Shown: positions 59 to 63,942, counted from the stretch's first letter. The stretch: DNA of 64,000 nt from Amoebophrya sp. A120 (GCA_905178155.1 CAJINV010000002.1:5327709-5391708), one strand, 5' to 3'. Numbers and translations are program-made. The notes: generated by a model not told the origin, from the sequence alone.

Positions 59-2475
59 GTTTTCTCTTGGGGTAGTAATTCCAACGGGCAGCTCGGCCAA
101 GGGAAAAGGACGCCGGACCAGCCCGTGCCCGGCGGAGTCGACGAGGCGAAGGACAAGCAAGCCTACCACGATTTCAAGACACTGAAAAAAAAGTACCTGT
201 TCCCAAACAAGATGCACTTGCCGCCCGGAAACGAGGGCGTCAGCAGGATAGGCAGCGGCAACGAAGGCACCTATATCAAAAGGAAAAATCCCCCCTCCCC
301 ATATCAAAACGAAGTTTCTCATGCAGGATTTGCGTACACAAATAAGATTTGTCTTGCTGGAGAGGAATGCAGCCCGATACTAAGCCTAAGTAGAGAGGCT
401 CTGGCCTAGGCGTCTAGCATGAGAGACGTCCGTGCTGTAGGCCCATCAGCATCACAAACCGCCCCCACAATGCTGCGGAGCTTGTGGAGTTGCCTTCTTG
501 CAAGACAGACGTGATTTGAGGTCGCAAATCAGCAGCGCAAATTTTCGGAAACATACCTTTTCGATATGGGGAGGGGGGATTTTTCCTCTTAATAACCTAC
601 ATTGTCACCAAGGGGGCGAAGTCCTACGCCTGCGGGTTGAACGGAGACAACCAACTCGGTATCATACATTGATCTGGAAAAGCATAAACTTCCTTTGCAT
701 CCATGTAAACCGTACGTTTATTTGATGCTCTGCTCAACACTTTTAGTACTGCATCCGCAAATGCAACTGAAGCAGGCCTGCTATCGCTAAGAGTGGTCGA
801 GTTGAAATACATATGTTCATTTCCTTGGTAACTCCAACCTCCCACAGGTCTTGGTAAGCAGCAACCGAACATCATCGAGACCCTGACCGAGCTGGTGGAA
901 CTGCGCGGCAAGCAGATTTCGTACATTGGGGGCGGGCAGCAACACGGGTGTGCCTGGGACAAAAACGACAACCAGGTGTACACGTGGGGCCGGAAGCCTT
1001 TTACCGGCATGAACGTACCGGAGACGAACGCTGACCGCGAGTTTGCGTCCCCGGTGAAAATCCCAAAGGAGGCCTTCGCGGGAAACCGCATCACGGACTT
1101 CAACAGCTCCAGCTACACCAACTTCGCGCTGACGGATATGCAAGAAGAAAAGATCGATCGTGCAGTTGTAGAGTTTTGGTTTTCAGTGATCTTCATGCGC
1201 AGCATGCCAAATGCCGGTCTCTTTCAACATGATGTTGGCCGTGCATTGTAGTGCCCGTGAAGAAAGCGCGTTTTTGCATGTTGCTATCTTCTGGTGCGCA
1301 TCATGACAGGGGTTGCTGTTATGCCATAAAGAATTTGTATATGCTTTTTCTCCGAGACGAAAAAACACTCTCGAACTTTTTCTCTCGGATAACGGAAAAC
1401 GGAGACGTGTTTGCGTGGGGTAGTGGGGAAATGTACCAGTTAGGCAACGTGCCGAAGGACGTCGACAACTACACGAAGGAAGAGAAAGATTTGATCGAGG
1501 GAAAGTCGGAACTCGCGCCCGCACTCATGCACGCGGAAAAGTTGAAGGACAAGTACGATTTTTTTGCGATAATTTCGTTGAAGGTCATTAAGTAGTACTT
1601 CACCATAAAGAACGCAATGGCGTCGAGCCCTATATGATCTTGGTTTTGACGTACACAAAAAAACTCAGGCACTGTGCATGGAGTTTTTTTTCTTCGTGAA
1701 GACGCTGGCTCTACTTCTCATTGATTTCTGCTTTTTTTCTCGGTTTAGGTTTAGGTAGGCCGCCACCGCTGCCGGCACGGGATGGCTGTCGTCGCGACCG
1801 TCTCACCTTCGATCTACGCCTTCTCCTGCTGCACAAGTTCGATCCGGAAAGGGTTTAGTTTAGGTTTCAGGGTTTAGGATATCCACTTTAAATCGACCTA
1901 GGTCGTTCTGCAAAAGTTGTGATTCCATCTATCCCACGAAAAAATAAACAGATACATTCTTTCCGTCGCTGGCGGTAGTCAGCACACGGTGATCCTGGCC
2001 TGGAACCCGATATGAACTGCAAAAGTATCGTACTCGTATAAATGCATGACAAATTTTCTCAGCATGAGAAATAAAATTTGTCATGCTGATTTACCTTACG
2101 AAAAATATTTGTAATGCAAGACCTGCATTTATACGAGTACGATACTTTTGCACAGGATACCCGAATCTTCCGGACAATTTCAAGCGTTCGCAGGCGGTGC
2201 TGGAAATCGAGCAGCAGGAGGATGTCTTGTCCTCGACTGCGCTCCTGAACGAGGAGTCCAACAAGCCGTCGCGGCTCGATTCGCCCTCCAAAATTGACCT
2301 GGAAACACGGTCAGAGATGAACATTTCGCCGCGGGCGAAGCGGCCAAAGCTCTGCTTCAGCCGGGACGTGGTGGAGAGGTGTCTGCAGGAGGTGAAAAAG
2401 CTGGAGAAAACAGTGTGGAACACCGGGCTGAACCGGGACAAGGCCATCGAAAATCTACCCTCGCTGTGTGATTGA
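59..2475 (+). CDS. RCC1/BLIP-II repeat protein, 3' part (multi-exon; probably starts upstream of the window)
   Basis: Spliced exons (~59-273, 600-658, 848-1136, 1397-1552, 1952-2010, 2165-2475) give RCC1 repeat motifs VFSWGSNSNGQLGQG, SYACGLNGDNQLG, GGGQQHG..VYTWG, LTENGDVFAWGSGEMYQLG and VAGGSQHT. Two GT-AG introns (659-847, 1553-1951) and three TIR introns. Confidence 0.85.
274..594. mobile_element. TIR introner, family B (poly-C TIR)
   Basis: TATCAAAAGGAAAAATCCCCCCTCCCCATATC ... GATATGGGGAGGGGGGATTTTTCCTCTTAATA, flanked by DR ACCTA; removal gives GTYIVTKGAKSY. Confidence 0.9.
1137..1391. mobile_element. TIR introner (diverged TIR)
   Basis: TATGCAAGAAGAAAAGATCGA ... TCGAACTTTTTCTCTCGGATA, DR ACGGA; removal restores LTENGDVFAWG. 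Confidence 0.8.
2011..2159. mobile_element. TIR introner, family C
   Basis: TATGAACTGCAAAAGTATCGTACTCGTATAAATGC ... GCATTTATACGAGTACGATACTTTTGCACAGGATA, DR CCCGA; in-frame on removal. Confidence 0.9.
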
Positions 2476-2528
2476 TGGACAAGAACTGTGAATCTCGCTG
2501 TGTAATTGATGGACAAGAACTGTGAATC
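2461..2528 (+). repeat. 34-bp tandem duplication spanning the RCC1 stop codon
   Basis: TCGCTGTGT(G/A)ATTGATGGACAAGAACTGTGAATC x2 with one mismatch. Confidence 0.85.
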
Positions 2529-3285
2529 ATGGTGGCCATTCACTTTTGGGAAATGGTGGCTGTGAAAATGAGAAGGCAAGAACACAAGGGCGGTTCTTTT
2601 CTTGCAAGAGCAGAGCCTTGTTCTTTTAACCTCAGGAAGAGCTACTGCACTACGACGCGAATTATTTGTTCCAAAGTACCTTGTGCACCACGACAAAATG
2701 CGATTGCGACCGCATTAGCATTTCATATATCCGCCTCGTTTTCGTTGAAAAGGCGAGGAGCGACGGGGAATGAAAGGGAGCTCTTTCATCATCGTCAGTT
2801 TTGCTCACTGCTGTACTGTTCGAAGTTTCAAAATCACCCAAACCCCTTCCCGGATGTCAGCGCTCCTTCGGTCTATGGTCCGTTTCCGCGCTTCGTAAGT
2901 GGTACAATTGGAAGTGGTGGTGGACGAGAAAGAAGACGCACCAGGACATGTGTACTTTAGAAATAATGGCGCGCAGCTGTCGATATTGTCTCGTCCTCGT
3001 GCCTCCAGAAGTGTCGTGGTCGTGATAAGCACGCTTCCGTTTCGCGTTCTTGTTTTATTCAAGCTTCTGTTCTTCGTAATTTTCGTGCCATGACAGCACG
3101 ACCGCGCGAGTCAATGTCGATGATATGAGTTGAATAGTACGTACCAGTACGCATCAATACCAATAGAGGTCAGGTGCGCATCAGCTGTGGAAGAAGATGC
3201 CAGCCCATTACTAGCCCGCGATGGCTGCAGTCGCGACTGCCCACCGGCGCAAGAGCAGCTGCTGCAGCAAACTATAACACGAAGA

Positions 3286-5803
3286 ATGAAGGTTCGACCT
3301 TTACCGCTTGCTCATCTTCCCGCCCGCCGCGGAAGATGGCCGCCACTTGTCGCGGTCACGACGTCGTTCTTGATCTTCCTGCTCGCTACAACTGCGTCAG
3401 CAGCAGCCTCGGCTTCTGCGGTGCACGAAGTCCATGTGGCGCAACAAGGTTATCAAGGACAACAAGCTCCCGCCGACGACTCCTCTAGTTTGGAATCTGG
3501 CAACGCGGAAAAACTGTTAGAGGATAACGAGCTGCTGAAGCAGCTGGCCGAGCAGGATGAGAAAGCGGTGCAGCAGCGGAAGGAGAATTTCCAAGCGGAA
3601 TCACACGTGCAGGAGGAGCTGATCGGGTTTTACGCGAAGTTATCAAATGTAAAAATGTCTGGGTCTGGAAGAATGCAACTTGTCATGCTAAATCTGAAGC
3701 ATGCAAAAATCTGTGTTGCATGATTACCAAAAGTCGTCCAGTTTTGACCAAGTCTGGAGGGAGTTTCTCATGCAGGATAGGCATGAGAGAGATCGCACAG
3801 AATCTGTCATGCTAGGTCCTGCATTCCAGACCTCATGGGTCATGGAAAAGCTGCATGACAAATCGCTCATTCTTCCAGACTCAGGCATTTTTACATCTGA
3901 TAGAAGTCTCTGCAGGCACAAAGACTCGCGCTGGACCAGCTGCAGTCCTCTTCCAAGCAAAACGCGGAAGAAGCCGTATCAAATGCAAAAATGTCTGGGT
4001 CTGGAAGATTTTGAGATTTGTCATGCTTGTCTGGCATGACCAAAAAGTTTGTGATGCGTGTCCGAGAAGAGACCCTTTTGCCTGTCATGCAAAAACGCAG
4101 TTTGTCATGCGAAAGCCGCAACACAGAGAACTTCTTTGAAAGAAGCGCAGATACTTCTCATGTTTGCCTGTGCATTACAGAGCATTCACTATTCCCAACG
4201 CAGCATTACAAGTTTCCAGACCCAGACATTTTTACATTTGATAAGCCGTGGAGATCAACAAGGAACTGAAGAAAACGCTGGACAACTTGAAGAAGAGCGA
4301 GGCGGGGTTGGTGGCTGCCGCGAAGGAGAAGGCCAAGGAAGCCGTCGTGCAGAAGTTCCGGGAAGAAAATTTTTTGTTGAAGAATTGGGACAAAGTGACC
4401 TTTGGAACGGAAAACTCAAAGGTGGCGGAAAGGAAAACGGAACAGTACGTGGCGCATGTGAGTATTGATAGCGTTTTTACTTTTATATACTCAACGCACT
4501 TGATTCCATTTTGTTGCTTGATTTAGGTCCGCATGACATATTCATCTTCGGCGATGGAGTGCTGCGCGACGCTTTTCGTATTTATTCTAGGCAGTTGTGG
4601 TGCGCAGCAGTGGGAGGTACCATTACAATAAATGAAAAATCGCAACATATAAAAACCTCTGTTGACATCTGCAGCGTAATTTTTTACCTTCCAACCACCC
4701 CTCCACGACAGATGACCTCTACACCCGCGCTTTGCAGAACGAGCGGCAAGCCGCGGGACTGGAGACCGAGGCCAACAGCCTTGCAGCGTCTTCCCAGGCA
4801 CTGTCCGACGGTGCCGACGACAAGGAGGATATGGAGTTCTCAAATGCTACATTCTCAACTGTATACGTGAATTTGTAATGCAAGAATGATAAAAGTGAAA
4901 CTGAAAGGGGGAAGATTGTGCCTTTTGCATTACAACTACTTCGGCGCAGATTCTGATGCTATCTAGCACGTGAAGAACTTATCATGCGCGGCAGCTCAAT
5001 CATGTAGATAATGATGGCAGTTTTGCGCGCCCAATCGCGTAACAGTTGAGAATGTAACGCTTGAGAATCCCATAGAGAAGGCCGGCGAGGCCCTGGCCGC
5101 CCAACTGGACCGGTCGGAGGCCGCGCAGTTGAAATTGCAGGCGGGCGAGAAGTATGCATCGCAAAAGTTGTGGTACCGTGCTGCTCGTGCTACAACATGC
5201 CATCACGCATGACAAATCCGCTTCCTCTGCTTGCATCTGCATCAGGGAAAATGAAATTTGCCGTGCAAGAGAAATTTTAAGTAGTATCAGTATGATGCTT
5301 TTGCCCTGCATACGAAGCGGGCCTACGCGGACGCGCTGATGGCGGAAGCCAAGCAGTGGACGGGAAAGCGGAAGGATTTGAGTCCGGGGACGGACGGGGA
5401 CGTGGATGAGTTGGTGAGAAAACCCTACGCGGATATCAAAAGCAAAAATCCCCCCTCCCCATATCAAAACCAAATTTCTGATGCTGGATTTGGATACACA
5501 AATCAGATTTGTGTTGCAGAAAGGCATTGCGGCCAGATCCCCAGGCTAGCTGCAGCCGTTTGGGTCTAGTTGCTCAGCACGGCAAACGGCTCACTTTTAG
5601 GCCCAAAAGCATGACAAATCGCTTCCATAATGGGGCGGAAGCTTCTGCCCTTGTCTTCTTGCAAGACAAATGTGACTTGTGACCTCAAATCAGCAACACA
5701 AATTTTAATTTTCGGAAACATGCCTTTTCGATATGGGGAGGGGGGATTTTTCCTCACAATAACGGACGTGCACTCCTCACTGGACTTCTTGGCCCGGCGG
5801 TGA
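3286..5803 (+). CDS. Hypothetical protein with N-terminal hydrophobic (signal/anchor) segment and coiled-coil body
   Basis: LVAVTTSFLIFLLATTASA followed by E/K/Q/A-rich helical exons joined in frame by removing five TIR introns; stop TGA at 5801-5803. Splicing around 4458-4710 is unresolved. Confidence 0.6.
3641..3902. mobile_element. TIR introner, family A
   Basis: TATCAAATGTAAAAATGTCTGGGTCTGGAAG ... CTTCCAGACTCAGGCATTTTTACATCTGATA, DR GAAGT. Confidence 0.92.
3977..4243. mobile_element. TIR introner, family A
   Basis: ~30-bp family A TIRs, DR AGCCG; removal gives NAEEAVEINKELKK. Confidence 0.92.
4830..5074. mobile_element. TIR introner, family D
   Basis: TATGGAGTTCTCAAATGCTACATTCTCAACTG ... 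CAGTTGAGAATGTAACGCTTGAGAATCCCATA, DR GAGGA/GAGAA. Confidence 0.88.
5153..5312. mobile_element. TIR introner, family C-like
   Basis: TATGCATCGCAAAAG ... CTTTTGCCCTGCATA, DR AGAAG/CGAAG; in-frame on removal. Confidence 0.78.
5434..5761. mobile_element. TIR introner, family B
   Basis: Poly-C/poly-G TIRs as at 274-594, DR GCGGA/ACGGA. Confidence 0.9.
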
Positions 5804-6607: not shown

Positions 6608-9600
6608 ATGTTTTCCGGAGTTGCCGGCATGCTGCCACTTCCTCCCACTGGGAGCGGTGGTTCGTCCTCTGCTGCCGGTGCCCAGGGCAGCACGAGTAGA
6701 GGCACAAATAGCGACCAGCAGCAACTCGTGCACTTCTGCGAATCGGTCGGAATTCGCTCGCTCGCGAGGAATGGCAAGTACCTGGCGCACTACAAGATGA
6801 CGATGACCACCACTTCCGGAGGGTTATACTATGGCACAGCAGGCGGGTCTGCTGGGAGTTCTTCGTTTGCGGGAACTAGTACAACGGCGAGCAGCACTGG
6901 TGTGAAAAATTCCGTTGAAATTGCGGGCGTCCACCCCTTTCCGCGCACCGACGGCACGTCCGCGCCCAGTGAATGGTCCGTGCATCGGTTTGCGCCCGAG
7001 AAGCGGTTTACCAATTTGCAGATCGGAGGCAGTTCTGCGTCTTCCTCCGCCACGGGTAGTAATGTCCGTGCCGCCGCCGGGGGACTACACCACAGTCTAG
7101 GTGGGCCGCCGTCGAGCTCCTTTCTAGATGAGGCCACGTTGCGATGCGGAGACTCTGTATTGCTGCGGTGTATGCGTTCTTGCCTTGCTGGCTGTGACCA
7201 TGTGCTACGATAGCATGGATAATTTAGTATAGTAGTACCAGCTCCTCGAGTCAACAGAGATCCGTCTCGTCGACGAGATCGATCGAAAGTAAGCTGCGAC
7301 GAGTAGTTGTTGTGTCATGTTGCAAGAATGAATGACCCGGCCAGGACGACAGGAACAGGTGTAGACCAGCACGTTGAATGTACTTGAAAAACCAAAACAC
7401 CAAGAAAGCGAATATCTAAACAGGTTTGCTTCGTTCGTAACCGCGACCCGGTGAAGAACACTTGCGAGTACCTCACCTCCCTCGGCCGGGAGCAGATTAG
7501 CGTCGAGCGAGATTCTTGCGATGCGACCAGGCCGGGGTACAATATGGCGTTCTCAACTGTTACATTCTCAACTGTTGCATGAATTTGTCATGCAGAACTA
7601 CCATCAAGATCCACACGAGAAAGCTGCGTCGCATGACAAATTTGCGAAGAGCTTAACAGCACCTAAATCTGTGCAGAACTTGTAATGCTAGAGGTGCAAC
7701 CTCCCCCCTTTCACTTTTGCAATTCTTGCATCACAGTTGAGAATGTAACAATTGAGAACGCCATATACAAATGGCTGATCGTGAACGCCGACGACCCGCG
7801 GAGCCAGGCGAAACTGCAAGAGACAGACGCGGTCTACTTGAAGGATCCGTTCCACAACTTCCTCTCCGTAAATCCGAGTTTCGGCCAGGGTGCTGGCGGG
7901 GGGCCCTCCGCGCCGGCAAAGTCCTCCACGCCAATCTGCGTTGCGGAGACCCTACGCCACGAGCGTTGCGTCAGGTATTGGGTACTTTGCATTTTTGCAA
8001 TAGTTTTCTTTCAGTATCAATTCATTAAAGGGAAGATCGGACAGAATGAATATAGAATTTTGCACTGCAGGCATTGCCACCTCGACAAACTTAAACGTCA
8101 CTTGAGCTTCTGGACGGTGTGTTTGTTGGCGCTGTCCTTCTTGTCACGACTGTCACTTCTTGCTATTTTTTCTCTTTCAGCACAAGTGGATGCAAAGGGA
8201 AAAGAATCCAACACAAATACGACGATCTTGATCTCTCACCTCATTTAGGTGGCAGCTCCTGCGCGCAAAGTCTGTGCCCATGTGGGAGGTCTTTGAGCCC
8301 CCTCCGGACAACACTACCGAAACAATAGCAAATTCAGCCGCCGCGGGTGGCTTTAACCCGAATCTGTCTTCGCTGGACATGTCGGTTCTCTCCGCGGCAA
8401 CGCAAAACCGGAACAATCCGACCAACAATCTCTATCACTTGCTCCAGCAGCGACAGGCGGAGACGACGCTCCCGGTTTTCAACCACGCTACGGACAACCT
8501 GTTTGACGCGCCCCATTTTATGCGCGAAAACAACGTTTTCCAACTCTTCTCCTCGTCTACCGAGGACCCGCCGACCGCTCTGGAGCAGGAGAAAGCGCTG
8601 GTGGAGGACATTTTGTTCTGCTTGCTCGGGGTTCGGGATGGCCAGTTCATTAAGTGTAAGAAGATACGAACAGGAGGATCTACAACTGGAACGACAACAT
8701 CATCTGCCGGCAGCAGTGGGGTAAATAATAACCCGCCTGTCGCGTTCAAATACGAGATTCCTTCTGCTGGTGCAACCACTGGTGGGGGCTCAGCTAGTAC
8801 CGGGACGACGAACCCGGCCTCTGCAACCGACAGCGCTGCGAACAATGCGGAAAGCTCGGGAAGCGCCGGGAACTCACGGGCAAGAGCGAGAAGTGGGTCC
8901 TCGTTGCAAGGCGGCGGCGTTCCGATACCTTGGAAGGTACAGGGAGTTTTCATCATTTTCTGTTGTTCCAGACTGTTGGCAAGCAGGTGCAAGTGATATA
9001 TTTCGTGCACTTTTGATCATTCCTCGTGCCCGCTATAAATCCTGTGCACGAATTTTTAGGCGAGATGTTGAAATAAATCTTCTCAAGAAATAAAACTCCG
9101 AAGGTCGCCCTGATCCATTTGACAAGGCAGATCCTGCCCCTGTGCGAATGGCACGCCACTGTCACCGACTACGTGGACTACCACTCGACACTAGACAAGG
9201 GAAAGATTCAGCACGCCCTGTGCGCCGCGGTAGACAATCTCGTGCAGGAATACAGATTGAAAATCGGCCAACTGGAGAGTCTCCATCGCGAAGATCATCA
9301 TAGCACCGGCGCAGGCAACAGCGCCGGCGGGGGTGCAACATCCAATTCAGCAAACAACTTCACGCTGCATCGCCTCTGGTACCTCCTGCAGCCGTCCTTC
9401 GAGACGATGTCGCAACTAGCGGCGATCTGCACCGCCGTGTACGGAAAAAGCGGGGGCAGCTTGCTTCGGGCATTAGAAGCGGTGATGCAGGGGGGACGAT
9501 TTGGGAACTCGGTCGTGCGGAAAAAATTGGCGGAGCATTGTATTGATAGAAAAACGTCGATCTTCCTAGCCTGATGTCAACCAACATATGTGAGTTTGGA

Positions 9601-12600
9601 TTCGCTTTATAGTTGCATAGGGAAATTCAAATTCTTCACCCGTGCGTGGATAGGATTTCTCATTCTCTTGCAATGTCGCATTCTTACAACTGAAGTATCC
9701 CTTCGTTTTTCTTGTGCTTCTGGTTCTTCCGCATCTACACCCACTCGTGACATTTTTTTTTGCGACAACCTCTCAGGTCTCGCGGCCGCCACGGTTCCTT
9801 TTTTCGACATGCTCGCGGATTGGCTCGAGGAGGGAAAACTCACCGAGGACGTGTACGACGAGTTTTTCGTAAAGAAGAACCCGCAGGTTTCGGAGAGCAA
9901 ATTTGGCCCCTTCTTCTGGCACAACCGTTACTACGTGGAGCCCTCGCTCATCCCCGGGTTTTTACTCTCCCTGAAAGACCGAATTTTGAAGGCGGGGAAG
10001 TATAAAAAGGTGCTAAACGACTGCATCCGGATCAAAAACGAGGAAAACGCGGGACGAACACATGTTGAACAAGATGCAGGACGAATGCATTTTTCCCAAC
10101 GGGGCTCGTCGTCCAGGGCGGTCACGACCTTCTCGAGTAGAAAAAACGAAAAGGACGACAACGACCACTACACGGGAATAAATAGTATTAAAATCGCCAC
10201 CAGCTTGATGACGAGTGTTTCGTCGGATCACCACGACCACCCGACGAGCAAGTCGAAAAGTAGAACTTTCTACTACACCAAGTCGGACTCCTTCTACATT
10301 CAGAAGGTCACGAAGTTCTACCAGCAGAGCTCGAAGCAACTGCTGCAGTACTTTCTGCACGATCTGAAGCTGAAGACGCGGCTCCGGGTCTTCCGCGCGC
10401 TGTTTTTCCTGGAGAAGGCAGACTGGGTCTCCATCCTGTTTTTGAACGCGCGCAACGAGTTGGAGCAGCCGATGAACTTGGTGAATGCGCAACGCTTGGA
10501 GTCCGTGCTGGACTTGTCGTTTCGCAGTTCCTCGCTGCACGTGCTGTATAACAACACTCTGGAGCAAAAACAACCGATTTTTGTCAACGCCCAGACCGCG
10601 TTGAAGGAAAGCTTGGACTTCGCGCGAGTAAACAGCAGCAGCACAGTATGAAATGCAAAAGCATCGTACTAGTAATAGTATAAATCGCATGACAAATTTA
10701 CCTTAAGAAAAAACTACTACGAGTGCGATACTTTTGCACAGGATACACAGATGAACAACTACATCTGGATAATGAAGCCGAAGACGCCGGGCGGGGTGTT
10801 AAAAGTGCCGGAGCAGCCACGGGACGAGGACGCAGACGAGGGCAAGATCAAGATGACGCGAGACCAGACACAGTAGATGAAGATCAGGAACAAGTAGACG
10901 AAGGCGGTAATGTGATTGAAGACCAAATTGCAGCAGACGAACGCCCTGCGTACACGACGTACTTCCCGAAGACACCCTTCGCTCAGTTTTCCCGGTTGCC
11001 GACGACTGACAAGGACGTCACGGAAAAGATTCTGTCGCAGATAAAGCCCGCATTTCACACCTTCCGAATCGAAGACAAATGCAGGATGTTGCTGCAATCT
11101 TCGAGTTATCAACTGCAAAAATGTCTGGGTCTGGAAGGATGCCAGATTTATCATGCAGGTTTTCTATGACCCACGAGGTCTGGAGTGCAGCACCTAGCAT
11201 GAAAAATTTGGTTAGATCTCTATCATGCCTATCCTGCATGGGAAATTCCCTCTCGACTTGGTGAAAACTGGAGGACTTTTAGTAATCATGCAACACAGAT
11301 TTTTGCATGCTTCAGATTTAGCATGAGGAGTTGCATTCTTCCAGACCCAGACACTTTTGCATTTGATACGAGTAACCTGGGAGGCTCTAGTACCTCAAGC
11401 GGCGGAATGGCAGCAGGTGGTATTTTCAGCAATAGTGGAGGGGGCGACTACAATCAGGAGGTGCCATTCGAGGATTTGATTGTCATGAACCCCAGCACGT
11501 CCGCCGCGATGAAAAACGTGCAGCAACCCGGAATCAAATTCTTCACGCTGCAATACACGACCGAAGCAGGAGGTGGTTCTTCGAGCTCTTCTTCTGCAGC
11601 CGCCGGGTCATCATACCAGTACCACCAGCCTCAGCCGCACGAGCAGATGAACAATTACGATACGACTGCGGCAGCTTCGTCGTCCTCCTCTCAGACGACG
11701 CAAAATCCGGAATGGCTTTTGTTCCACGGGAGTAACTTGCTGAAGTACCAGTGCATCTTCCGACACTTGATCTACCTGAAATACGTCGAGAAGCGGCTGG
11801 CGGACGTGTGGATCATGGAGCAAAAGATGGCGTTCGCGAACGGATCCGCACAGCACTACAAAATGCTGAACAGCAAATTTTCGACCGTCCAGAGCCTGCG
11901 GGAGTCCTACAGCCTCCGGCAGCAGATGTACCACTTCGTCCACTCCTTGCTCCACCTCTCGCAAGCCAGCTCGCTGGAGCCGAACTTTTTTAGCCTGATC
12001 AAGCAGCTAGACGAGATTGACTCTGTCGACGAGCTGCTGGAAGTGCACGATCTCTTTCTCTACAAGTGCTTCACCGAAACGCTGCTTTTGTTCGAGTGCA
12101 GCGGCGGGGGCGGGACGAGTGCAGCGTCGTCGCCGAACCAACAGCTGCCAGGAGAGCAAAACAGCTCGAATCTAAATCTCTCCTTCAACACGACAGCGAG
12201 TAGCACGACTACCATGTACCACACGCTGTTTATCACAAGAAGAAAATGTAAAGATACACAGTTTACAGTAATAAATTTCAGCAACACAAATTTTCATCTC
12301 TGCACGACAACGAAATAAGATTGCAATGTAGAGATCAACATAAGGGGAAGCACGCAGTACGAAATTGCGCTCTTCATATGCATAAGCATATCTGGCGTGA
12401 CAGGGCTTGTTTCTCTTGCTTGTTCCCCAAGAACTACCTAATGTGTAACTGTACCACTTTTTTCTTTGCATACTGTTGAAGCTTCTGTCCACCTGCGTTT
12501 TGTTTGCCACGGCCGTGGAGGACTTCATTCAGCGGTTCGGCACCACAACCAACATGAATAACACCGTCCCCGGATCCGGGCTGGTCTCCACGACGAATTC

Positions 12601-14281
12601 CGCCACCGCGGCGACCGCCAACACGTCGATTTCCAGCCGCTTCACGCAGGCGATCCAGGAAAATAACCGTATCAAATGTAAAAATGTCTTATGGCGCGCC
12701 TAAAGTAGCTTTTTTAAAAGTACTAGAATTTTTTTTTTGCAAGCGCTTCAGTGCCAGAACCTAGCTAATAAAACTAGCTAACTCTGAATATGCATGAGAA
12801 ATTTATTGCGAATAAGTGCAAAAGCACGTCGGCGTCGAGAGGTAAGTAGGCTGGTACCCTTCGAGGCTCTGGTCTACGGATCTGTCCAGAGCGGTCCCGT
12901 CGCCAAGCCTTGCTGAGGGTCCTCTACTCGGAGCTCTGGCTAGGTGTACGGTCCCGAAACGACGAAAACCGCGCGGAATTTACCAACCTCCGATACTCGG
13001 TTCCGAACATCCAGCCAGATCTTGACATTGGCGCACGATGGCGCTACCTACACTGCGACGGCGCATTAGCTGTCGAACATGGGAAAAAAAACCTCTGCGA
13101 ATCTATTGGGAAACTTCGCCCGAGTTTGTCCCCCTCCGCAGATGCCAACTGATCGGCCTCTTCGGGAGGGGTAGCTACATCGGGATTGGCGATTTTTTTG
13201 GGGGGTGTTTCGTAGGCCATTTTGCCGGCCACTTCGCGGGCCCTTTGGGGGCCCTGTGTTGGGGCAGGCCTGCGTGCCCGTTACTCTTTTCGCTGCGGTC
13301 CGCAGCAGGTGGCCTCCGCACTTGCGTATTGCGAACTCGTTCGCAAATTCGCAGTAGACACCGAACGTCATGAGATGGCCCACCTACTGTTTCAACCGGA
13401 GTAGATGACTTTGCGCACAACCAGAAACATGTCCGAGCTCGCCACGACGTACCGATAGCGCTCCGGACAGATCCGTGGGCCAGCCCTTCGTGGAAGACGA
13501 GCAAGCTACTACCTCTGAGTTAGACAACTGGTTACGCATGCAAAATTCCACCTAGTTTGATTAGCTAACTCTATCTAGTTTGGTATAGCTAGTTGCCGAC
13601 GTGCCGCACAAACATCAAAAAAAAAATTCTAGTACTTTTGAAAAAGCTACTTTAGGCGCGCCATATGTCTTGGCCTGGAAACTTGTAATGCTGCGTTGGG
13701 AATAGTGAATGCCCTGTAATGCACAGACAAGCATGAGAAATGTCTGCGCTTCTTTGTGTTGCGTTTTTCGCATGACAAGCTGCGTTTTTGCATGACAGGC
13801 AGAAGGGCCTCTTCTTGGACACGCATCATAAACTTTTTGATCATGCCAGACAACCATGACAAATCTCGCAATCTTCCAGACCCAGACATTTTTACAGTTG
13901 ATAAACCGGTTGGCGCTGCAATCGGTGCTCGAAAACGAGCACTACAAGAAGATGATTCGGAAGTTCCAGACGATCTTCAACAATCAGCTGCAAACCCTGC
14001 TGAACCAGGCGAAGCAAATTGTGGCGCAATTCGGCTTATCCTGTGCAAAAGTATCGTATTCGTATAAATGCAAGTCTTGCAGCATTACAAATTTTCTTCT
14101 CCAGGTAAATCCGCATTGCAAATTTTAATTCTCATGCTGAGGGAATTTGTCATGCATTTATACGAATCGAATATACTTTTGCAGTTCATATGGCTCGGAC
14201 CACTACCTTCACCAACTGCTGCTAAAATTGGACTTTAACGATCACTACTTGAACGCAAGCGTTGTGGTTCTGGGGGGCTAG
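6608..14281 (+). CDS. TUBGCP2: Gamma-tubulin complex component 2 (GCP2/Spc97) with low-complexity insertions; multi-exon, start approximate
   Basis: GRIP-domain motifs QEKALVEDILFCLLG, ILPLCEWH..GKIQHALCAA, PFFDMLADWLEEG..DVYDEFFV, FWHNRY..IPGFL..ILKAGKY, KYQCIFRHLIYLKYVEKRL, LRQQMYHFV and terminal LLLKLDFNDHY; TAG at 14279-14281. Confidence 0.85.
7543..7765. mobile_element. TIR introner, family D (opposite orientation to 4830 and 21260)
   Basis: TATGGCGTTCTCAACTGTTACATTCTCAACTG ... CAGTTGAGAATGTAACAATTGAGAACGCCATA, DR TACAA. Confidence 0.9.
10647..10745. mobile_element. TIR introner, family C (99 bp, shortest copy)
   Basis: TATGAAATGCAAAAGCATCGTACT ... GAGTGCGATACTTTTGCACAGGATA, DR CACAG. 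Confidence 0.85.
11107..11368. mobile_element. TIR introner, family A (reverse complement of the 3641-3902 type)
   Basis: Family A TIRs, DR CGAGT; interior is the reverse complement of the 3641 copy. Confidence 0.92.
12231..12472. mobile_element. TIR introner (diverged)
   Basis: TATCACAAGAAGAAAA ... TTTTTTCTTTGCATA, DR CTGTT; removal gives HTLLKLLSTCVLF. Confidence 0.78.
12670..13903. mobile_element. Composite family A introner (reverse complement of the 3977 type) carrying a nested element
   Basis: DR AACCG; left TIR is split at TGTCT by a 976-bp insertion; removing the whole unit gives ENNRLALQSVLE. Confidence 0.9.
12690..13665. mobile_element. 976-bp non-autonomous TIR element nested in an introner TIR
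   Basis: ~50-bp TIR TATGGCGCGCCTAAAGTAGCTTTTT..AAGTACTAGAATTTTTT and its reverse complement ending GGCGCGCCATA; DR TGTCT (12685-12689 and 13666-13670). Confidence 0.92.
14037..14190. mobile_element. TIR introner, family C (reverse complement of 2011-2159)
   Basis: TATCCTGTGCAAAAGTATCG ... TACTTTTGCAGTTCATA, DR CGGCT/TGGCT; removal gives FGSDHYLHQLLLKLDFN. Confidence 0.9.
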
Positions 14282-27069: not shown

Positions 27070-27079
27070 CCACCAGTAA

Positions 27080-40614: not shown

Positions 40615-40766
40615 TATGCAGTGCAAAAGTTGTATCGCAGTGGTATGGATTGCATCACATTCACAACTTTAAGTATCTCATATTATTTTGCTAAGAGATG
40701 GCGATGAGACACTTGTCTCGACGCAAGCCTGCAATTCATACGAGTGCGATGCTTTTGCACTGGATA
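40615..40766. mobile_element. Family C element in non-coding DNA downstream of the PKG stop
   Basis: TATGCAGTGCAAAAG ... CTTTTGCACTGGATA; DR decayed. Confidence 0.7.
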
Positions 40767-42387: not shown

Positions 42388-42668
42388 TATCAAAATGAAA
42401 AGTTTCCCCTCCCCACATTCAAAACGAAATTTGTGATGTTGGATTTGTGTACACAAAAGTAGTGACTGCTCCCTTGGCCTGGTTGTTTAGCATGCCAGCA
42501 ACTTGCCCTGTAGTCCCGAGAGCATCAGAAATCGCCCACTCAAGGTGGCGGAGACCTCTGGGTTGCCACCTTCCGGGAGGGACAGTTGATTTGTTTGTGT
42601 ACACAATTCAGCAACACTAATGCAATCCGCTTTGAATATGGGCACGGGCGATATTTTTCGTCACAATA
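42388..42668. mobile_element. Family B element in apparently intergenic DNA
   Basis: TATCAAAATGAAAAGTTTCCCCTCCCC ... ATATTTTTCGTCACAATA, DR CATGA. Confidence 0.8.
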
Positions 42669-43784: not shown

Positions 43785-45507
43785 TGACCCGCGCGAAATG
43801 CGCGCGCAAGACCCGACGGAACTTGCGGCGCTCCGGCCTGACTGCCCGTACACAACGGCGGTCACCTCCTGGACACATTGGGTGGCCCTGCCTCCCGCGC
43901 AAGCTTCAACTGCACAAAGCCTCAGTGCTGACCAGCAGCCGGCCCGCCGGGTGTATCATACCTACGCCCCTGAGCTGGAATCGGATCAGGGAGCCGACCG
44001 ACAATTTGCGCCACCGGCTGCGCAGTGTCCCCCCTGGGCTATGGAAGCGGTCAAGACCCTAGAGAGTGCAGGCTGGAGCCGGCACCAGGTGCAGCGCCTC
44101 CAAACCTACCGCCCCCAGGTGGGGCGGCTAGAGAACTTGCGGGTGCACACGCATGAGCTCGCCGGAACCAGAGATGAACTAGTGGCGCGCTACAAGTTCA
44201 CCGGGGCGTGCGACGGGGCACACCTTGCAGCAACAGGGCGCGGGGCCTCGGCTGCCTACCTTCACAGCAGCCGCGAAGCGAGGGTGCTTACAGGAGCTTG
44301 GGGCGGGAACAAAAGCTCCTACCGCCCGGAGTTCACGGCCCTCATGGATCTGCTCGGCCTCGCCATCCAGGCCGCCGCCGAAGAAGATACGGCCGCTCAA
44401 GAATTACTTCTTTTGTCCGACGCACAGGCAGTCCTCGCCCGCATTAAAACGCTTGCGCAGTGCGGCGGGCTGGCTACGGATGCAGAGTGCGAGATGCTGG
44501 CCCGCCTGGAGCGGGTCAGTCGGCTCTACAAATGCATCAGGATCCAGCATGTGTACGGCCACACCGAGGTCACCCACAACGAAGTCTCGGACGCCTTGGC
44601 TGACCACGCCGCCGCCCTCGGTCCCGCGCCAGCTGAGTGGCCACAGGCACCGACCCTGGACGACGTGAAAGGATTAGTCAAGGCGGAACTAGACAGGCAA
44701 GAAGTGGACGCCATGCAGTCGCTGAAGCGGGCGGCCCCGTCCGTCAGTGGCAGCCTCTGCAGTGTCTTCCTCCCGGACCGCCCGGCCTGCAAGAAACTGC
44801 ACAAAGAACTAAGCGCGCAGGGCGAAAGTCGCGAGGTTCAAGTAACTGCGGCAAGCCTACTAGGCGCCACCCGCTTCAAGCAACTCACCCCGGCCGGGCT
44901 TCTCGGCCGTATTTGTCCCAAGTGCGACGCCGTTGCGGACACGCCGGCCCACTTCCTAGAGTGTTACGAAGTCGGGGACCTTGGCGGGCTATCGGACCCG
45001 CAGCGCCTGGCGCGCCTGTTCTCCTACGTCACATACGGAACGCGCGCACACCAAGACGGGCGGCGCCGTGCCGCCGGCGGCGGCGACGCAGCCGGGCCAC
45101 CGCCGCCCCAGCACAGGGGCAATTTTTGAGCACGTAGGGCATTTTGCCACCATGAACGTACAGCCGTCACTCCTTCTGGCCTGGTGCCAGTCGCACGTGG
45201 TGCCGCTCAGGCAGCGTCTCCCTACACACCGTAGTATAGTCATTCTGTGCTGCGCACCAGGAGTGCGCCCTCTGATTGATGAAACTATAAGGAACCAGCG
45301 CAAGAGCCGGCCCGCCATGGTCACACCCTCCAGCGCGATGCTCTCCTCCAGCCTCACGTCTAGATGTCGCGTTGCGTAGGTGGGTTTCGTTTCACTGTGC
45401 TTCCACAACCTCGTTGTTCAGTGGGTCGCTGCCAGAACAGCAGGATCAAAGAGCGAGCACCGCGTCTGTTTGAAACAAGAGTGGATCAAATAAATAAAAA
45501 AATAAAA
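43785..45507 (+). mobile_element. 5'-truncated non-LTR retrotransposon with A-rich 3' tail and 30-bp target-site duplication
   Basis: Flanks ATTTTCCATTCTTCGAAAC(A/C)AGGGCACTAC at 43755-43784 and 45508-45537; 3' end AAATAAATAAAAAAATAAAA; RNase H plus Cys/His knuckle ORF. Confidence 0.85.
43798..45129 (+). CDS. Retrotransposon ORF C-terminus: RNase H domain plus Cys/His zinc knuckle (RT domain absent)
   Basis: RNase HI catalytic pattern FTGACDGA..SSYRPEFTAL..LLSDAQAVL..QHVYGHTEVTHNEVSDALA, then CPKC..DTPAHFLEC; intronless and GC-rich. Confidence 0.82.
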   Translation: MRAQDPTELAALRPDCPYTTAVTSWTHWVALPPAQASTAQSLSADQQPARRVYHTYAPELESDQGADRQFAPPAAQCPPWAMEAVKTLESAGWSRHQVQRLQTYRPQVGRLENLRVHTHELAGTRDELVARYKFTGACDGAHLAATGRGASAAYLHSSREARVLTGAWGGNKSSYRPEFTALMDLLGLAIQAAAEEDTAAQELLLLSDAQAVLARIKTLAQCGGLATDAECEMLARLERVSRLYKCIRIQHVYGHTEVTHNEVSDALADHAAALGPAPAEWPQAPTLDDVKGLVKAELDRQEVDAMQSLKRAAPSVSGSLCSVFLPDRPACKKLHKELSAQGESREVQVTAASLLGATRFKQLTPAGLLGRICPKCDAVADTPAHFLECYEVGDLGGLSDPQRLARLFSYVTYGTRAHQDGRRRAAGGGDAAGPPPPQHRGNF

Positions 45508-49546: not shown

Positions 49547-52500
49547 ATGGCCGAGAAACAAGTGAAACCCGGCGCCGGCGCGGACAGCACTAAAAAGAAT
49601 GCAGGCGCCCCCAAGCCTTCCCCGAGAGCGACCCCAGCAACCGTTGTCGACCCAGCCAAGGTGAGAATCGTCGCCGCCGGCGCGGCAACTGCACCGCCGG
49701 CGGCTGCAGGAGGACCGACAGGTAGCAAGAACTCGAGTGCTGGTGCAACAGCAACAGCTACAGCGGCCGCACCCGCCGTCGCATCCGCCGGTGGCAGTAC
49801 AACAACTGCAGGCGGTACTAGAACTGCAGCTGTTGCAGCGGCCGCGGGTAGTACAACTGCGCAAGGCAACAAGAACACTACAAATTCTAAGCCCACGGGT
49901 ACCCCCAAAGCCTCTCCAAAGGCGTCCCCGAAAGCAGGGGCAGCTGCTGGTGCCGGACCCGGACCACTTTCGCAGGCGGGGAGCGGAAGTGTCGTCGTGA
50001 TAAAAGCAGTGGACGCAGCAGCAGATTCAAATAAAGGGATGAGTACTAGTAAACCATCTCCGAAAGTAGTAGATTCCAGCAGTACAACTATCGTTGCCGG
50101 TGGAGCTGCAGCAAAGTCGTCTGGTGACATCACTGCCGCCAAGGTTCCCATCAAAACAGGGAACAACAATGCTGGCGCTTCTAAACCCACTCCGAGAGGG
50201 GGTGCAGCTGGCGCTTCTGCGGTCGCAGAGCAGACAGGCAGCACCAAGCCCCCCACGACCGCTGGTGGATCCGCCGCGCAGCCAACAACTTCTAGTACAA
50301 CCGCAGGGTCTAGTAGTACTACTTTGCCACCGAAAGCGAAGCAGTCGGCCCCGAAACCTAAGCAGGAGAAGAAACTGCAGCCACTGAAGTACACGGAGGA
50401 GCGTATTCAACTGAATGACGCGGAGATCTTATCGAGGAAAAAAACTGATGTGTAAAAAGGCTGCCTTTGATGTGCATGTGTAGTTGCAGAAGATGCATAA
50501 GTAGAGGTCAGCACAATGCTCGTCGACATGCATCGTTGTAGCCTAGTTCTTTATTCATATGTGTGCTGTTCACATTCACATACTATGATCTGTGCATGAC
50601 TTATGCGCAACATCAACATCATATTTCTTGTCACGCTGTGTTCCTCGTGCAAAAGCAAAAGCAAAAAGAGCTGCGCCGACTTCTACAACACAGTTGTTGT
50701 TTTCTTGGATAGATCTCGAAGTTCGTGGGGCTGAACATGGTGCGGCAGCCCGAGCCTGTGGTGAAGATTCAGACCATGTTCACGAACCTGTTCCGCACCA
50801 CGGTCCGCATCTTCGGTGCGGAAGATCAGGGCGAACAAGGGATGTTGAACAACGAGGATGAAAGAGCGTCGAGAATAAAACAACTACGGCCGGAACACGA
50901 GCTGAAGCAGCAGACTGCGAAGCAACAAGTTTTGCAGGCCCTGGAAGCGTATGAGCAGGTACTGGACGGGCTGCAGTTGGAGCAGCGCAGTTACATTCAC
51001 CAGTTGAAAGCTTTGCGTGAAGAGGAAAAGAAGGTCAAGGTGGTCCTTGGGCAACGATCCGTCGACACGGGGGAGCTGCTACTCGTGGACGACACTGGTA
51101 GTAAAAATGCGGTTGGAGGTGAAAAAAAGGACACGACGAAGGCTACTTTATCTACGGCAGGAGGTACAACTACCAAGGTACTATCAAACAACAAGAGTGG
51201 CGTGAAGAAGATGAACATCGATGGTACGAGCAGCACGACAAGTGAGGATGAAGATGACCACTCCTCTCGCACAACATCAGCTGCCAAAACGGCGACAACC
51301 AAGAAGCTTTTTGGAAAGACGCTCAACGACGTGGTGGACTCCAAGCAATTCGATCTGGAAGGTCTTTATCAAAGGGAAATTTCGATCTGGGGTTGGAAGG
51401 TTGCAAGTTAATTTATCAACAGGCGTGTCCGGCATTTGAGCATGACTTGACAAGTCGGCGCTGCTGCTGTCTTGCATGTTGCTCACGAAATAGTACTCCA
51501 GGATGAATCTGTCACCCAAATTATAAAACCCAGCTCATTGTTCTGCGAAATACCAATACGCGAGAAGAACAGGTAATATGAATGAGCCACGCAAAATAAA
51601 CCTGTGGTCATGCTTAGCTGTGCATCGCTACGCGCTTTTTTTGTTTTTTCTGACAATTAGTTTTTGTCTAAGAAGCTTCATTGGCACGATTCCATCGACG
51701 CCATCACAACTTTCCAGAGGACCCAGACGTATTTACGTTGCATAGACTGCTCGGGCACGAACAGGCGATTGAGGAGTTGAAGGTAAGGCGGTACTAGCAG
51801 ATTGAGCTTTCATCGTCCTACCAGATCTTGATATAATTGGTCTTGCTCTTGACCTCTTGCCCATGCAGACGAGGGGCGACCCCCGTTGTTCATCGTGTGC
51901 CGGTGCCCATCGTCCCTGCATCGGGAAGATATGATCTACTTCATGGGAGACCGAGACTTTATGATTATGTTCACTACCTCTACTGTGCAAAAAAAAAAAC
52001 AGGAAGTAGCAGGGAGCTTGGAATTCATCGCTGAAGAGGCGGTTGGGGAAGATTTAGTAAGCGACAAGAAAAAGAACGCGTTGGAGCAAGCTGGTGGGGA
52101 AGTCGATGCGGGGGCCGCAGGTGAAGAAGTGTCCTCTGATGACGAGTATCCACTGCAAAAGTGCTATGATCCACCGATGCTCCTAGTTGTAAATGTAATT
52201 GATGCGAGCAAGCGCGACAAATCTGCTTGTTTTCGACTTGAGTCTGTCTAAATGACAGACAAACGAAACGGAAACTTCGATTTTCTTCTTCTATGAACAA
52301 AATATGAATTTGTCATGCGATTTACAGCTAGTAGCGCGAAGATCTTCATGTTTTTGCAGTGCATAGCGGGGACGAAAACACTGACGAGCCGATCGGAGAA
52401 ACGACGTCTTTACTGGAACTGGCCCACAAAACCAAGATCAACATGCTGCAGGAGGAGGTACTTACTCATTCAAGCTGACTCGTTACAAATTAAGTTTGGC

Positions 52501-56275: not shown

Positions 56276-59083
<2,808 letters not shown>

Positions 59084-61814: not shown

Positions 61815-63072
61815 ACAGCATCTTCTACTTCACGGGCCAGGTCCAGCACCTGCTCACGTCGATGTTGTTGTTGAATCTTGTTGTACAATAAAACGCGCCA
61901 CGTGGCAGCTGCTGCACGTGAAATGAATTATTTACGTTTCCTATACCCCGTTTCTTTGTTCGAGAAAGCACTCAGATTGAAAGAATGAACACCACTCTCC
62001 GGATTCGAAGGACGCTTGTCGCTTTAGAATTGGAAAAGAAATAGTGTTTTATGGAAACAAAACAACTCTGTAGCTGCACGCTTCGCCGACTGTCGTGCTT
62101 GTGAAGGGGTGTTCGTGCACCTGTCGGTCCTGCACCACCGGATCTTGTCAAGAGCCTTCATGAGGTGTGCGTGACTGTTCTTGTTTTCTCGCGCTTTTGG
62201 TACTAGTTCTGAGTTTAAGTAGGCCTTATTGGCGCCTACGTCTAGTACCTCCGGAGTGGTCGGCGTTGCAAATTTTGGCAGAGCTCCATGAATATGATTG
62301 ATGAGGACCACTCTACTTCCAGAATCACATTGAGTTAGAGTGCCGGATCCATCGTGGTATTTAATGAGCGAAAAAAATGAGGGATGAACCAAGGGGTCCT
62401 CACGACGGGCTGGTGGTGCCTATCGTAGTGCGGCCAAAAAAAGGTGAAAAATGGATTTGTTGTAATTTCTCGCTTGAAGCGCGACAATCAACTACATTGT
62501 GATATCAGCCACATGGTACTAGAACTAGTAGCACCACCAAATTCATCCCGCGTCGTTTTCGGTTTGTTGAGTGATTTTACGAGTTTTGATATACTTACAT
62601 TCAATCGCAGTGTTGAGAGAGAGATTTTTTTGTTGCCACATCCACTTCTCCGACGAGGCTGCAATTGCTATACGTTTGTCTTGTGAGCGAAGACGTGTGC
62701 TGAAAAAGAATTCTTCGAAGGAGATAGATTTTGACTCGAACGACCTGGTGAAAAACATGCAAACATAAAGTTTATGCAACCAGCACCTGTAAATGTAAAT
62801 GCACTTGTTGTTTGTGTCGATCGCGTTTTCGTTCTTGTCTTGAATTAGAATCGAACCTCAAAAGATGCAGCACTCCTCTCCCGGACCGCGCTGATTGTCA
62901 ACTGATAATATTGAAATAAGCGGTTCTTTGGCGGGGCCCAGCACGACACGAGCGCCAGCACGAAGACGCACTACTTGTTCCGATAACGTCGACAACTGCT
63001 GACGGTTACGCCCAAGAACATTGAAAGCCCTCGTCTTGCTCCTCCCTGTTTGTTCGTGCCGACGTGGTCACC

Positions 63073-63928
63073 ATGGAATCTGCCAGTTTCCACGACTTTC
63101 GGATCGTGCAGGAGCTCGGCCGCGGGTCCTTCGGCACGGTGTATAAGGCAAAATGGAACCAAAACCAGCACCCGGGATCCTCCTCCTCGCGCCCGACCAG
63201 CACGCGACCGGGGCCGCCTGGTGGAGACCCCGACGCGCAACCCTTTTTAGTGTTGAAGCGAATTGACTTCAAGCCCTGGCACCAGGAGAAACACCGGCTG
63301 GCGGCGAAAAAAGAGGTGCAGAAGATAGCTGGTTGATGTGCATGTGGATAGGTGGTTTTTTGTTTTCGAAATGAAACTTCGTCTCCTTTTTTCCACATGC
63401 GAGGTAGATTCCAACATTTGTCACGGTCGGGTCGTATCTATCAACAAGACAATGAAATTTCTATTCAGGTCCAGATGCTCGCGAAGGTGCGGCACCCGAA
63501 CATTATTCGGTACTACGGCAGCTTCACGTATAAGGGCGCCCTGTTTATCTGCATGGAGTATGCAAGCTGCGGAGACCTGCACCAGTTCATTCAGAAGCGG
63601 CAGAGGAGGCAGGCGCAGTTGACAGAGGATATCAAATGTAAAAATGTCTGGGTCTGGAAATTTGTAATGCTAAAAGTGAATGGGAGTTCCACCGCAATAC
63701 GGAGCCAAGCATGACAAATTTTTGGGCTCCTATGTGTTGCGTGTTCCGCATGGCAAACTGCGTTTTTGCATGACAGGTAAGAGGACAGCTTTGTGCCCAT
63801 GCATCACAGATTCTTGAGCCATGTCAGACATCCATGACAAACATAGCAATCTTCCAGACCCAGACATTTTTACATTTGACAGAGGACCTGCTTTGGAAAT
63901 TCGGGGACCAGCTCGTCGCTGCGATTGC
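63073..63928 (+). CDS. NEK: NIMA-related (NEK) protein kinase, 5' part (continues beyond the window)
   Basis: FRIVQELGRGSFGTVY..VLKRI..AKKEVQMLAKVRHPNIIRYYGSF..LFICMEYASCGDL..LTEDLLWKF..QLVAAI. Confidence 0.85.
63630..63881. mobile_element. TIR introner, family A
   Basis: Family A TIRs (right end ACA), DR GAGGA; removal gives LTEDLLWKF. Confidence 0.9.
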
Positions 63929-63942
63929 GTACTAACTACTGA

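Follow-up and report, generated by a model that had tools for sequence, protein, structure and literature searches.

How is a transposon-like element removed from a messenger RNA (mRNA) when it interrupts a coding exon and offers no GT-AG pair at its borders? The question is raised by a stretch of 64,000 nucleotides (nt) from Amoebophrya sp. A120 (GCA_905178155.1, CAJINV010000002.1:5327709-5391708), here called the window, in which elements with terminal inverted repeats (TIRs) and flanking 5-base-pair (bp) direct repeats lie within coding exons. It is very probable that these elements are RNA-level introns of transposon origin, removed in the register N-TAT...ATA-NNNN. An original prediction, made from the sequence alone, had stated that invasive introns were known in Amoebophrya and that their removal was open, in agreement with the text of Farhat 2021 (PMC7789003); a 2024 review likewise describes removal of the non-GT-AG introns as open. 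The phenomenon itself is already known, as the introner elements of A120, and what is added here is the exact cut, the dispensability of the direct repeat, and the empty sites in a related strain. No paper fixing the register for Amoebophrya was found by title or by the opening of the abstract, in a search that left most subscription journals outside and covered the figures of Farhat 2021 through their legends.

Identification and Anatomy of the Elements

The elements were located by a motif scan for TAT...ATA segments with a flanking 5-nt direct repeat matching at four or more of five positions and an anchored TIR score, with five block-wise dinucleotide shuffles as the control. The scan returned 40 candidates, 34 of them with a TIR score of at least 11, against 2-5 matches and a top score of 10 in the shuffles. 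When the motif was left out of the scan, exact 5-mer repeats flanked 31 inverted-repeat segments, 27 of which begin with TAT (26 TAT/TAT pairs and one TAT/TGT); repeats of other lengths gave four pairs for 6-mers and three for 7-mers. The curated list combines the motif scan, a relaxed scan and the RNA joints described below. It holds 45 elements, which occupy about one fifth of the window, and a 46th, at 63943, is truncated by the window end. Two entries, named like all others here by their first position (22734 and 28867), have TIR scores inside the shuffle range and lie outside the RNA-covered stretches.

The original prediction of about 44 such elements, some 39 of them interrupting exons, is close to this list. 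Termini are exactly TAT...ATA in 42 of the 45, and the direct repeat is perfect in 31, matches at 4/5 positions in seven, and at 3/5 or fewer in another seven. Modelled coding exons contain 41 elements, 3' untranslated regions (UTRs) two, and the remaining two are nested inside other elements. Sliding the boundary produces a GT-AG pair in none of the 45, as had been expected from fewer cases; GA-AG is possible in two and AT-AC in one. Lengths range from 99 to 1234 nt, with a median of 263 nt.

Grouping by blastn yields four multi-copy families and 18-22 singletons (22-26 sequence groups). The original prediction had named at least eight TIR families; to call them unrelated is too strong. All groups share an end of the TAT-N7-AAAA type, and an internal motif of the TTTGTnATGC type is present in 32 of the 45 elements (75 matches in 12.5 kilobases (kb) of element against six in 51.5 kb elsewhere). 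Among the 90 ends, positions 1-3 are T in 90, A in 88 and T in 89, and A occupies positions 11-14 in 72, 74, 86 and 70, respectively. A loose stretch at positions 4-7 is paired between the two ends in 21-28 of 45 elements, and the block at positions 8-13 in 35-43. Copies of family 1 are present in both orientations. The nested element of 976 nt has a longest stop-free frame of 115 codons, and no transposase was found among the 28 window frames scanned. The elements are non-coding transposon copies with inverted ends, of the type of miniature inverted-repeat transposable elements (MITEs) or non-autonomous TIR transposons.

Structured RNA with conserved ends could also point to ribozymes, each element splicing itself out of its transcript. 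The spread of lengths and the number of sequence groups argue against this, as do a common core consisting of short motifs only and a search of the window against Rfam that gave no match. Self-splicing is consequently rated as extremely improbable.

Evidence from Transcripts and Reading Frames

The transcript evidence consists of contigs from one sample (runs X1-X4), taken as RNA since they skip GT-AG introns, their RNA status being a guess by software. They cover 29600-41000 (X1) and 36250-53200 (X1-X4). At 21 of 21 RNA-covered elements, the element plus 5 nt is missing from the spliced contigs (16 seen as joints and five via coordinate arithmetic), so that the predicted description of the elements as precise non-GT-AG introns holds. 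In the first stretch a 9309-nt X1 contig aligns as exon pieces, and a model with 18 element introns and three GT-AG introns agrees with the contig coordinates at 15 of 15 checks. In the second, the four runs give identical sets of 15 listed joints (of 18), comprising 13 element joints, one GT-AG joint, and one that combines an element, an 8-nt microexon and a GT-AG intron. Every listed non-GT-AG joint coincides with an element, including the variant-end elements at 38640 and 39625 missed by strict scans. All 15 directly read element joints skip the element plus 5 nt; transcripts that keep the elements or use nearby GT-AG sites, the outcome named beforehand as contrary, were not seen among them. 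One joint was found per element in the four runs, as contigs that would hide rare forms.

The microexon (38417-38424) is included in all four runs, so the two types of intron, one an element and the other GT-AG, are processed with 8 nt between them. A separate observation concerns RNA contigs from other loci that carry element sequence: over 36816-37381 and 39080-39645 their summed depth exceeds that of the host gene. The excess may represent unspliced copies or stable excised elements.

In the kinase gene of the first stretch, the stop-free frame runs for 1704 codons up to 40367 and contains cNMP-binding and kinase domains. If the element plus 3, 4, 6 or 7 nt is removed instead, 382-623 of the 1704 codons are left. 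Retention of single elements also shortens long frames, for example from 1502 to 964 codons and from 995 to 531. Two RNA-supported elements (40615 and 42388) are in the 3' UTR, where the product is not under selection by a reading frame. The 22 coding elements in 1-29599 and 53201-64000 are placed by frame models only, which probe length modulo 3 and would equally accept the element plus 2 or plus 8 nt; at 5434, 14037, 28867 and 63630, near gene ends, retention of the element scarcely alters the frame.

These data bear on the idea that the joints are artefacts, created by reverse transcriptase switching template across hairpins at short direct repeats. A hairpin combined with a direct repeat is the usual setting for template switching. 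However, the joint 40613-40771 occurs with neither slide nor microhomology, retained elements would truncate the long frames, and the kinase frame tolerates none of the four other removal lengths just given. An artefact of this kind is scarcely credible.

Register of the Cut

Where the repeat is perfect, the joint can be placed at any of six positions, and the direct repeats had hidden the cut in this way; elements whose repeat copies have diverged lift the obstacle. Nine RNA-covered introns provide 21 mismatched repeat positions. The upstream copy supplies positions 1-4 in 16 of 16 cases, three of which (element 31105) depend on length arithmetic, and the downstream copy supplies position 5 in five of five. 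Offset 1 is the sole register common to all 15 directly read element joints. If cuts could fall anywhere in the repeat, the chance of one common register would be 0.006 for the seven listed joints and 0.0009 for all nine. The intron is N-TAT...ATA-NNNN, its borders lying 1 nt ahead of the element and 4 nt past it. The original prediction, that the element leaves together with one copy of its repeat, is right in that the element and 5 nt are lost, but the 5 nt are made up of 1 nt from the upstream copy and 4 nt from the downstream copy.

Two elements with 1/5 matching repeat bases are cut in the same register, and the direct repeat is therefore an insertion scar that is dispensable for splicing. 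In the seven elements with decayed repeats (16/35 positions identical), TIR positions 1-3 remain paired at 20/21 and positions 8-14 at 42/49, and positions 15-25 at only 26/77; six of these elements belong to the listed RNA joints, and the choice of ends favoured TAT. Both nested insertions sit at positions 16-22 of the host TIR, directly inside the A run, which could reflect a hotspot or survival bias, and both spare the outer 15-17 TIR bases of the host element. Because old elements keep positions 1-3 and 8-14 and the nested insertions spare the outermost bases, we infer that about 15 terminal bases per side form the removal signal. On folding, the terminal UAU/AUA is predicted to be paired in 28 of 43 elements, and positions 12-13 have a predicted pairing value above 0.5 in 35 of 43.

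Read in this register, the element donors have T+2 in 45/45, A+3 in 45/45 and T+4 in 44/45. G+1 is found in 14/45 elements, a terminal AG in 3/45, and both together in none. Among the combinations of first and last intron base, 13 of 16 occur, and the exon restarts with a purine after 26 of the 45 elements, so that there is no purine rule.

The register also bears on excision at the DNA level in an expressing life stage, in the manner of ciliate internal eliminated sequences. The elements are mobile DNA with polymorphic sites, and only one DNA-like run, X5, was available for comparison, both of which leave some room for this idea. However, X5 has a flat depth of about 45 on unique sequence (rising to 1e5 on elements) and its contigs enter or cross elements, one of them (33953-35053) passing through the element at 34728 unbroken. 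In addition, after a symmetric cut either copy would supply repeat positions 2-4, whereas 8/8 informative introns keep those of the upstream one. This rule holds although family-1 copies lie in both orientations, with the qualification that the tested genes are all on the + strand and that contigs drop rare variants. DNA-level excision thus appears very unlikely.

Mobility and Target-Site Duplication

Metagenome contigs were scanned with a sequence pattern, which matched at least 139 loci; the 80 loci listed all come from one assembly, and the sample is biased because the pattern itself bears TAT. Two of the loci, orthologous to the window and 90-95% identical to it, represent a related strain. 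In this relative, the sites of the window elements at 3641 and 21260 are empty and hold a single 5-mer (GAAGT and CGCGT, respectively), and the relative carries two elements without a counterpart in the window; in all four cases the difference is the element plus 5 nt. Because the empty sites hold one 5-mer, the 5-bp direct repeat is a target-site duplication. Across the metagenome loci, 160 of 185 TAT/TAT pairs have a perfect repeat, a count that includes overlaps and comes from loci found by the TAT-bearing pattern. TRT ends with 5-bp duplications are reminiscent of integrase-type transposases such as Tn7, Mu and Ginger2. A lead for the mobiliser is given by Gozashti 2025 (PMC12130899), where TIR elements with open reading frames (ORFs) resembling those of long terminal repeat (LTR) elements are reported in A120.

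One shared site stands apart. At 20328-20598 both strains carry a family-1 element (locus L004 in the relative), and the two copies are identical at only 206/284 positions, against 262/270 for the element at 3977, which is also shared. Replacement, conversion or independent insertion may account for the low identity.

Mechanism of Removal

Two machineries would fit these introns, and either would be surprising: a spliceosome that works without U1, G+1 and AG, or a precise cut-and-ligate pathway triggered by hairpins. The favoured reading, held with about even confidence, is that an altered major spliceosome, working without U1 and guided by the pairing of the ends, removes the elements from RNA. 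TIR positions 8-14 would pair and bring the ends together in place of U1 and U2AF, and U6 and Prp8 would read U+2, A+3 and U+4 as a donor, as in the GTA(T/C) introns of this genome. The 3' cut would be set by a ruler 4 nt beyond AUA, possibly with a branch A (-7 or -5) as its starting point. Since 1 nt and 4 nt add up to the length duplicated on insertion (5 bp), the original mRNA would be restored wherever and in whichever orientation a new copy inserts, and this silence would explain how the elements can spread through exons.

The resemblance to a donor is direct. The cut register puts TAT at +2 to +4, and 20 modelled GT-AG donors in the window have A+3 in 18/20 and T+4 or C+4 in 16/20 (10 and six, respectively), with no bias towards G+5. 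Because TAT falls where these GTA(T/C) donors have their corresponding bases, the machinery may read some of the bases of a spliceosomal donor. With respect to U2-type introns in general, the elements have the donor bases T+2, A+3 and Y+4 but no general GT start or AG end. The acceptors of the same 20 introns read CAG in 18/20, with A-rich sequence upstream and no polypyrimidine tract.

Published data are compatible with such a machinery. According to Farhat 2021 (PMC7789003), A120 has U2, U4, U5 and U6 and 83/89 spliceosomal proteins, U1 and snRNP27 being reported there as not found; in yeasts, loss of SNRNP27K accompanies donors with U at +4 (PMC10581693). Table S4 of the former paper gives nine top A120 non-canonical pairs that are all NT-NN and nine A25 pairs that are all TT-NN, the A25 inverted repeats (IRs) beginning with TTA. 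These pairs again fit T+2 and A+3, although placement by HISAT2 in repeats may favour donor-like bases, and they are consistent with the donor reading rather than independent of it. For the introns of Stentor a branch A has been proposed at -6 (PMC9505925), one base away from either position considered here (-7 or -5), and tunicates are described as splicing introns that are 95% non-GT-AG with a retained spliceosome core (PMC13326754).

Several observations weigh against the U1-less spliceosome. There is no trace of selection for G+1 or AG in the 45 window elements or in 88 oriented elements of the relative, where G+1 occurs in 23 (26%) against 31% at other duplication positions, and AG in nine against 8.9 expected (the orientation method was correct for 20 of 27 window elements, wrong for none and undecided for seven). 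Splicing is stated to need a non-Watson-Crick pair between the first and last intron bases (PMC13326754), and 13/16 combinations are found here. The match of the register to GTAT had a prior chance of about one in six, the donor and the putative branch site are predicted to be paired together in 28/43 elements, and the RNA evidence consists of contigs from a single sample classed as RNA by software. Finally, nine variant ends among 175 elements of the relative, with uncertain orientation, also affect +2, -5 and -7, so that no branch A can be named. An earlier deduction of the branch A from three window variants, which spare +2, +3, -5 and -7 and vary only at +4 and -6, was dropped.

Somewhat less probable is a dedicated system independent of the spliceosome, in which the RNA would be cut by an endonuclease, 1 nt ahead of the stem and 4 nt beyond it, and the exons joined by a ligase of the RtcB type. 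It may be, tentatively, that such a second splicing system is a high-fidelity relative of SOS splicing that reads paired TAT-N7-AAAA ends and handles a large share of introns. The wholly free bases at +1, -2 and -1 suit it, as does the pairing of TIR positions 8-14 retained in old elements. SOS splicing, as described in PMC12779559, is triggered by inverted terminal repeats (ITRs), depends on RTCB and is active in 3' UTRs, where the elements at 40615 and 42388 lie; the Euglena code, N3CDG...CH'GN5-6|R, likewise has a 3' spacer that is 2-3 nt longer than the 5' spacer, compared with 1 and 4 nt here. However, SOS splicing, which demonstrates that pathways of this second kind occur, is imprecise, as opposed to the one joint per element seen in four sets of contigs, and the coincidence of the register with the GTA(T/C) donor sits poorly with a separate endonuclease. 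According to the text of Farhat 2021, the cut would lie 0 nt from the stem in A25 and 1 nt in A120, the same place relative to TA; because the cuts would agree relative to TA and not to the stem, reading of sequence is favoured over a stem ruler. The original prediction, that a dedicated machinery reads TIR pairing and the TAT/ATA ends instead of consensus signals, is borne out in part: the ends matter and G+1 and AG do not, but TAT at +2 to +4 is the register of a donor.

The code N-TAT...ATA-NNNN defines the expected location of a branch point or of a free end and permits a minimal reporter, so that the U1-less spliceosome and the endonuclease system are separable. If the non-spliceosomal reading is true, any insertion that duplicates 5 bp would be erased from mRNA, and a large share of introns would be spliceosome-free.

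Genes and Elements along the Window

All modelled genes (RCC1-like, GCP, PKG-like, PP2A-like, BART-like, protein kinase and four unknown) are on the + strand, in agreement with the unidirectional gene clusters reported for Amoebophrya. The elements are listed on the same strand, except the two nested ones, which are listed without a strand. Scan and frame model place three elements in the RCC1-like gene, at 274..594 (family 2, with the repeat ACCTA), 1137..1391 (singleton) and 2011..2159 (family 3), followed by two family-1 elements at 3641..3902 and 3977..4243 and, with 4/5 repeats, by a family-4 element at 4830..5074 and a singleton at 5153..5312. The family-2 element at 5434..5761 (repeat 4/5) is close to a gene end, where the frame test is weak.

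Several elements lie in the gamma-tubulin complex gene, as predicted; the match to Pfam is at the level of the family GCP, of which the predicted GCP2 would be a subtype. Scan and frame model place elements here at 7543..7765 (family 4), 10647..10745 (family 3, at 99 nt the shortest), 11107..11368 (family 1), 12231..12472 (singleton) and 12670..13903. The last is a family-1 outer element that contains the nested 976-nt element (12690..13665) at position 16-20 of its TIR. A family-3 element at 14037..14190 (repeat 4/5) is again close to a gene end, with a weak frame test. Further along are the family-1 element at 20328..20598, the family-4 element at 21260..21501, and two singletons placed by scan and frame model at 22033..22263 and 23506..23784 (the latter with a 4/5 repeat). 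The weak candidate at 22734..23116 has a score of 8, and a GT-AG intron fits the frame equally well; the degenerate family-1-like element at 28867..29225 has a score of 9 and a weak frame test close to a gene end.

The PKG-like kinase gene, with its cNMP-binding domain, is represented by the host transcript at 29761..44390 (+ strand), the 9309-nt contig with 18 element introns and three GT-AG introns whose frame ends at 40367. This contig reaches about 4 kb beyond the stop, with two element introns in the 3' UTR. Contig coordinate arithmetic supports removal of a TIR element at 30694..31000 and elements of families 1 and 2 at 32059..32328 and 32389..32710. For the old element at 31105..31319 (repeat 1/5) the intron is 31104-31323, its left end obtained by arithmetic and the restart at 31324 read directly. 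At 32868..33142 (family 1, repeat 4/5) downstream base 5 is retained in the mRNA. Adjacent contig pieces skip 155 nt at 33832..33981 (family 3), and 331 nt are skipped in RNA at 34728..35053 (a TIR element).

The element at 36356..36714 (repeat 3/5; 364 nt skipped) lies inside the GCGGFG sequence of the kinase glycine loop, where the prediction had placed it. RNA joints then skip 267 nt at 36818..37079 (family 1), 257 nt at 37175..37426 (a TIR element) and 237 nt at 37549..37780 (old, repeat 3/5). The family-2 element at 38092..38412 is followed by the microexon and a GT-AG intron, and its RNA joint has GTGCG between the two sides. The outer element at 38640..39212, with ends TAT...ACA, is skipped as one unit of 578 nt together with the nested family-1 element at 38928..39190, which sits at position 18-22 of its 3' TIR. 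Next are a TIR element at 39292..39575 (repeat 4/5; 289 nt skipped), an old TAC...ATA element at 39625..39935 (repeat 3/5; 316 nt skipped), whose intron begins with GTAC and has no terminal AG, and a family-1 element at 40041..40303 (268 nt skipped). In the 3' UTR, the element at 40615..40766 (repeat 1/5) defines the unambiguous intron 40614-40770, with a joint that cannot slide, and 286 nt are skipped at 42388..42668.

RNA joints in the rest of the covered stretch skip 287 nt at 50430..50711 (singleton) and, for two old elements with 3/5 repeats, 383 nt at 51367..51744 and 224 nt at 52147..52365. The family-1 element at 58512..58763, placed by scan and frame model in the PP2A-like phosphatase gene, is just upstream of SAPNY, again as predicted. 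In the protein-kinase gene a family-1 element with ends TAT...ACA at 63630..63881 comes from the motif-free scan and the frame model, whose test is weak so close to the gene end. The start of a further family-1 element, at 63943..64000, is cut off by the window end.

Three further insertions or insertion-like stretches are present. At 43741-45537 an RNase H ORF (462 codons, PF00075) is flanked by the copies of a 30-nt direct repeat, the second of which is preceded by an A-rich run. This is likely a non-LTR retroelement truncated at its 5' end, and the contig of the kinase transcript enters it. At 45916-47318, two identical 36-nt direct repeats 1367 nt apart surround a non-coding stretch, which may be a further insertion that made a long duplication. 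A GC-rich 2.3-kb stretch at 24790-27053, between two long open frames, has TAT/ATA-like ends, a 3/5 flank match and internal direct and inverted repeats of 50-70 nt, and is not in the count of 45.

Comparison with Known Systems

The closest system is that of the A120 introner elements in Farhat 2021 (PMC7789003), described as having an IR of TAT, seven variable bases and an A run, direct repeats of 3-5 nt, many families and singletons, lengths of about 240 nt, and RNA-backed non-GT-AG junctions amid GT-AG introns. The window elements have the same TAT-N7-A-run IR, short direct repeats, RNA-supported non-GT-AG junctions and repeated families. In that account the splice site is variable with respect to the hairpin and the border unknown (legend to Fig. 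3; the legend to Fig. S23 gives 1-5 nt). Here, in contrast, diverged repeats place the cut 1 nt upstream and 4 nt downstream and show that removal does without an intact repeat, and the duplication of 5 bp follows from empty sites.

SOS splicing (Zhao et al. 2025, PMC12779559) is alike in that DNA transposons with ITRs, of unrelated families, leave the mRNA, also from 3' UTRs, with no GT-AG. It depends on AKAP17A, CAAP1 and RTCB, and a search by term of the available text gave no mention of Amoebophrya. Unlike the single register and seamless product seen here, SOS splicing is imprecise and leaves indels. The nonconventional introns of Euglena (Nomura et al. 2025, PMC12501133) and of hemistasiid diplonemids (PMC12621601) share paired triplets near the ends, spacers of fixed length that are longer on the 3' side, and a suspected MITE origin. 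The Euglena introns differ in having CDG/CH'G triplets, spacers of 3 and 5-6 nt and a purine rule, as opposed to UAU/AUA, spacers of 1 and 4 nt and no such rule; the elements read N1-TAT...ATA-N4|N and do not carry the Euglena signature.

The non-canonical introns of Fritillaria borealis (PMC13326754) are likewise MITE-derived and without GT-AG, with the spliceosome core kept. That species, however, has retained U1 and has a duplicated U2AF, and roughly half of its intron termini are isosteric to G-G, whereas all four terminal bases are free here except T+2. Introners of other eukaryotes (Gozashti 2022, PMC9860276; Gozashti 2025, PMC12130899) similarly combine TIRs and target-site duplications with splicing that leaves the mRNA length unchanged. 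These introners carry GY/AG or co-opt it from the duplication, whereas the Amoebophrya elements described here need neither.

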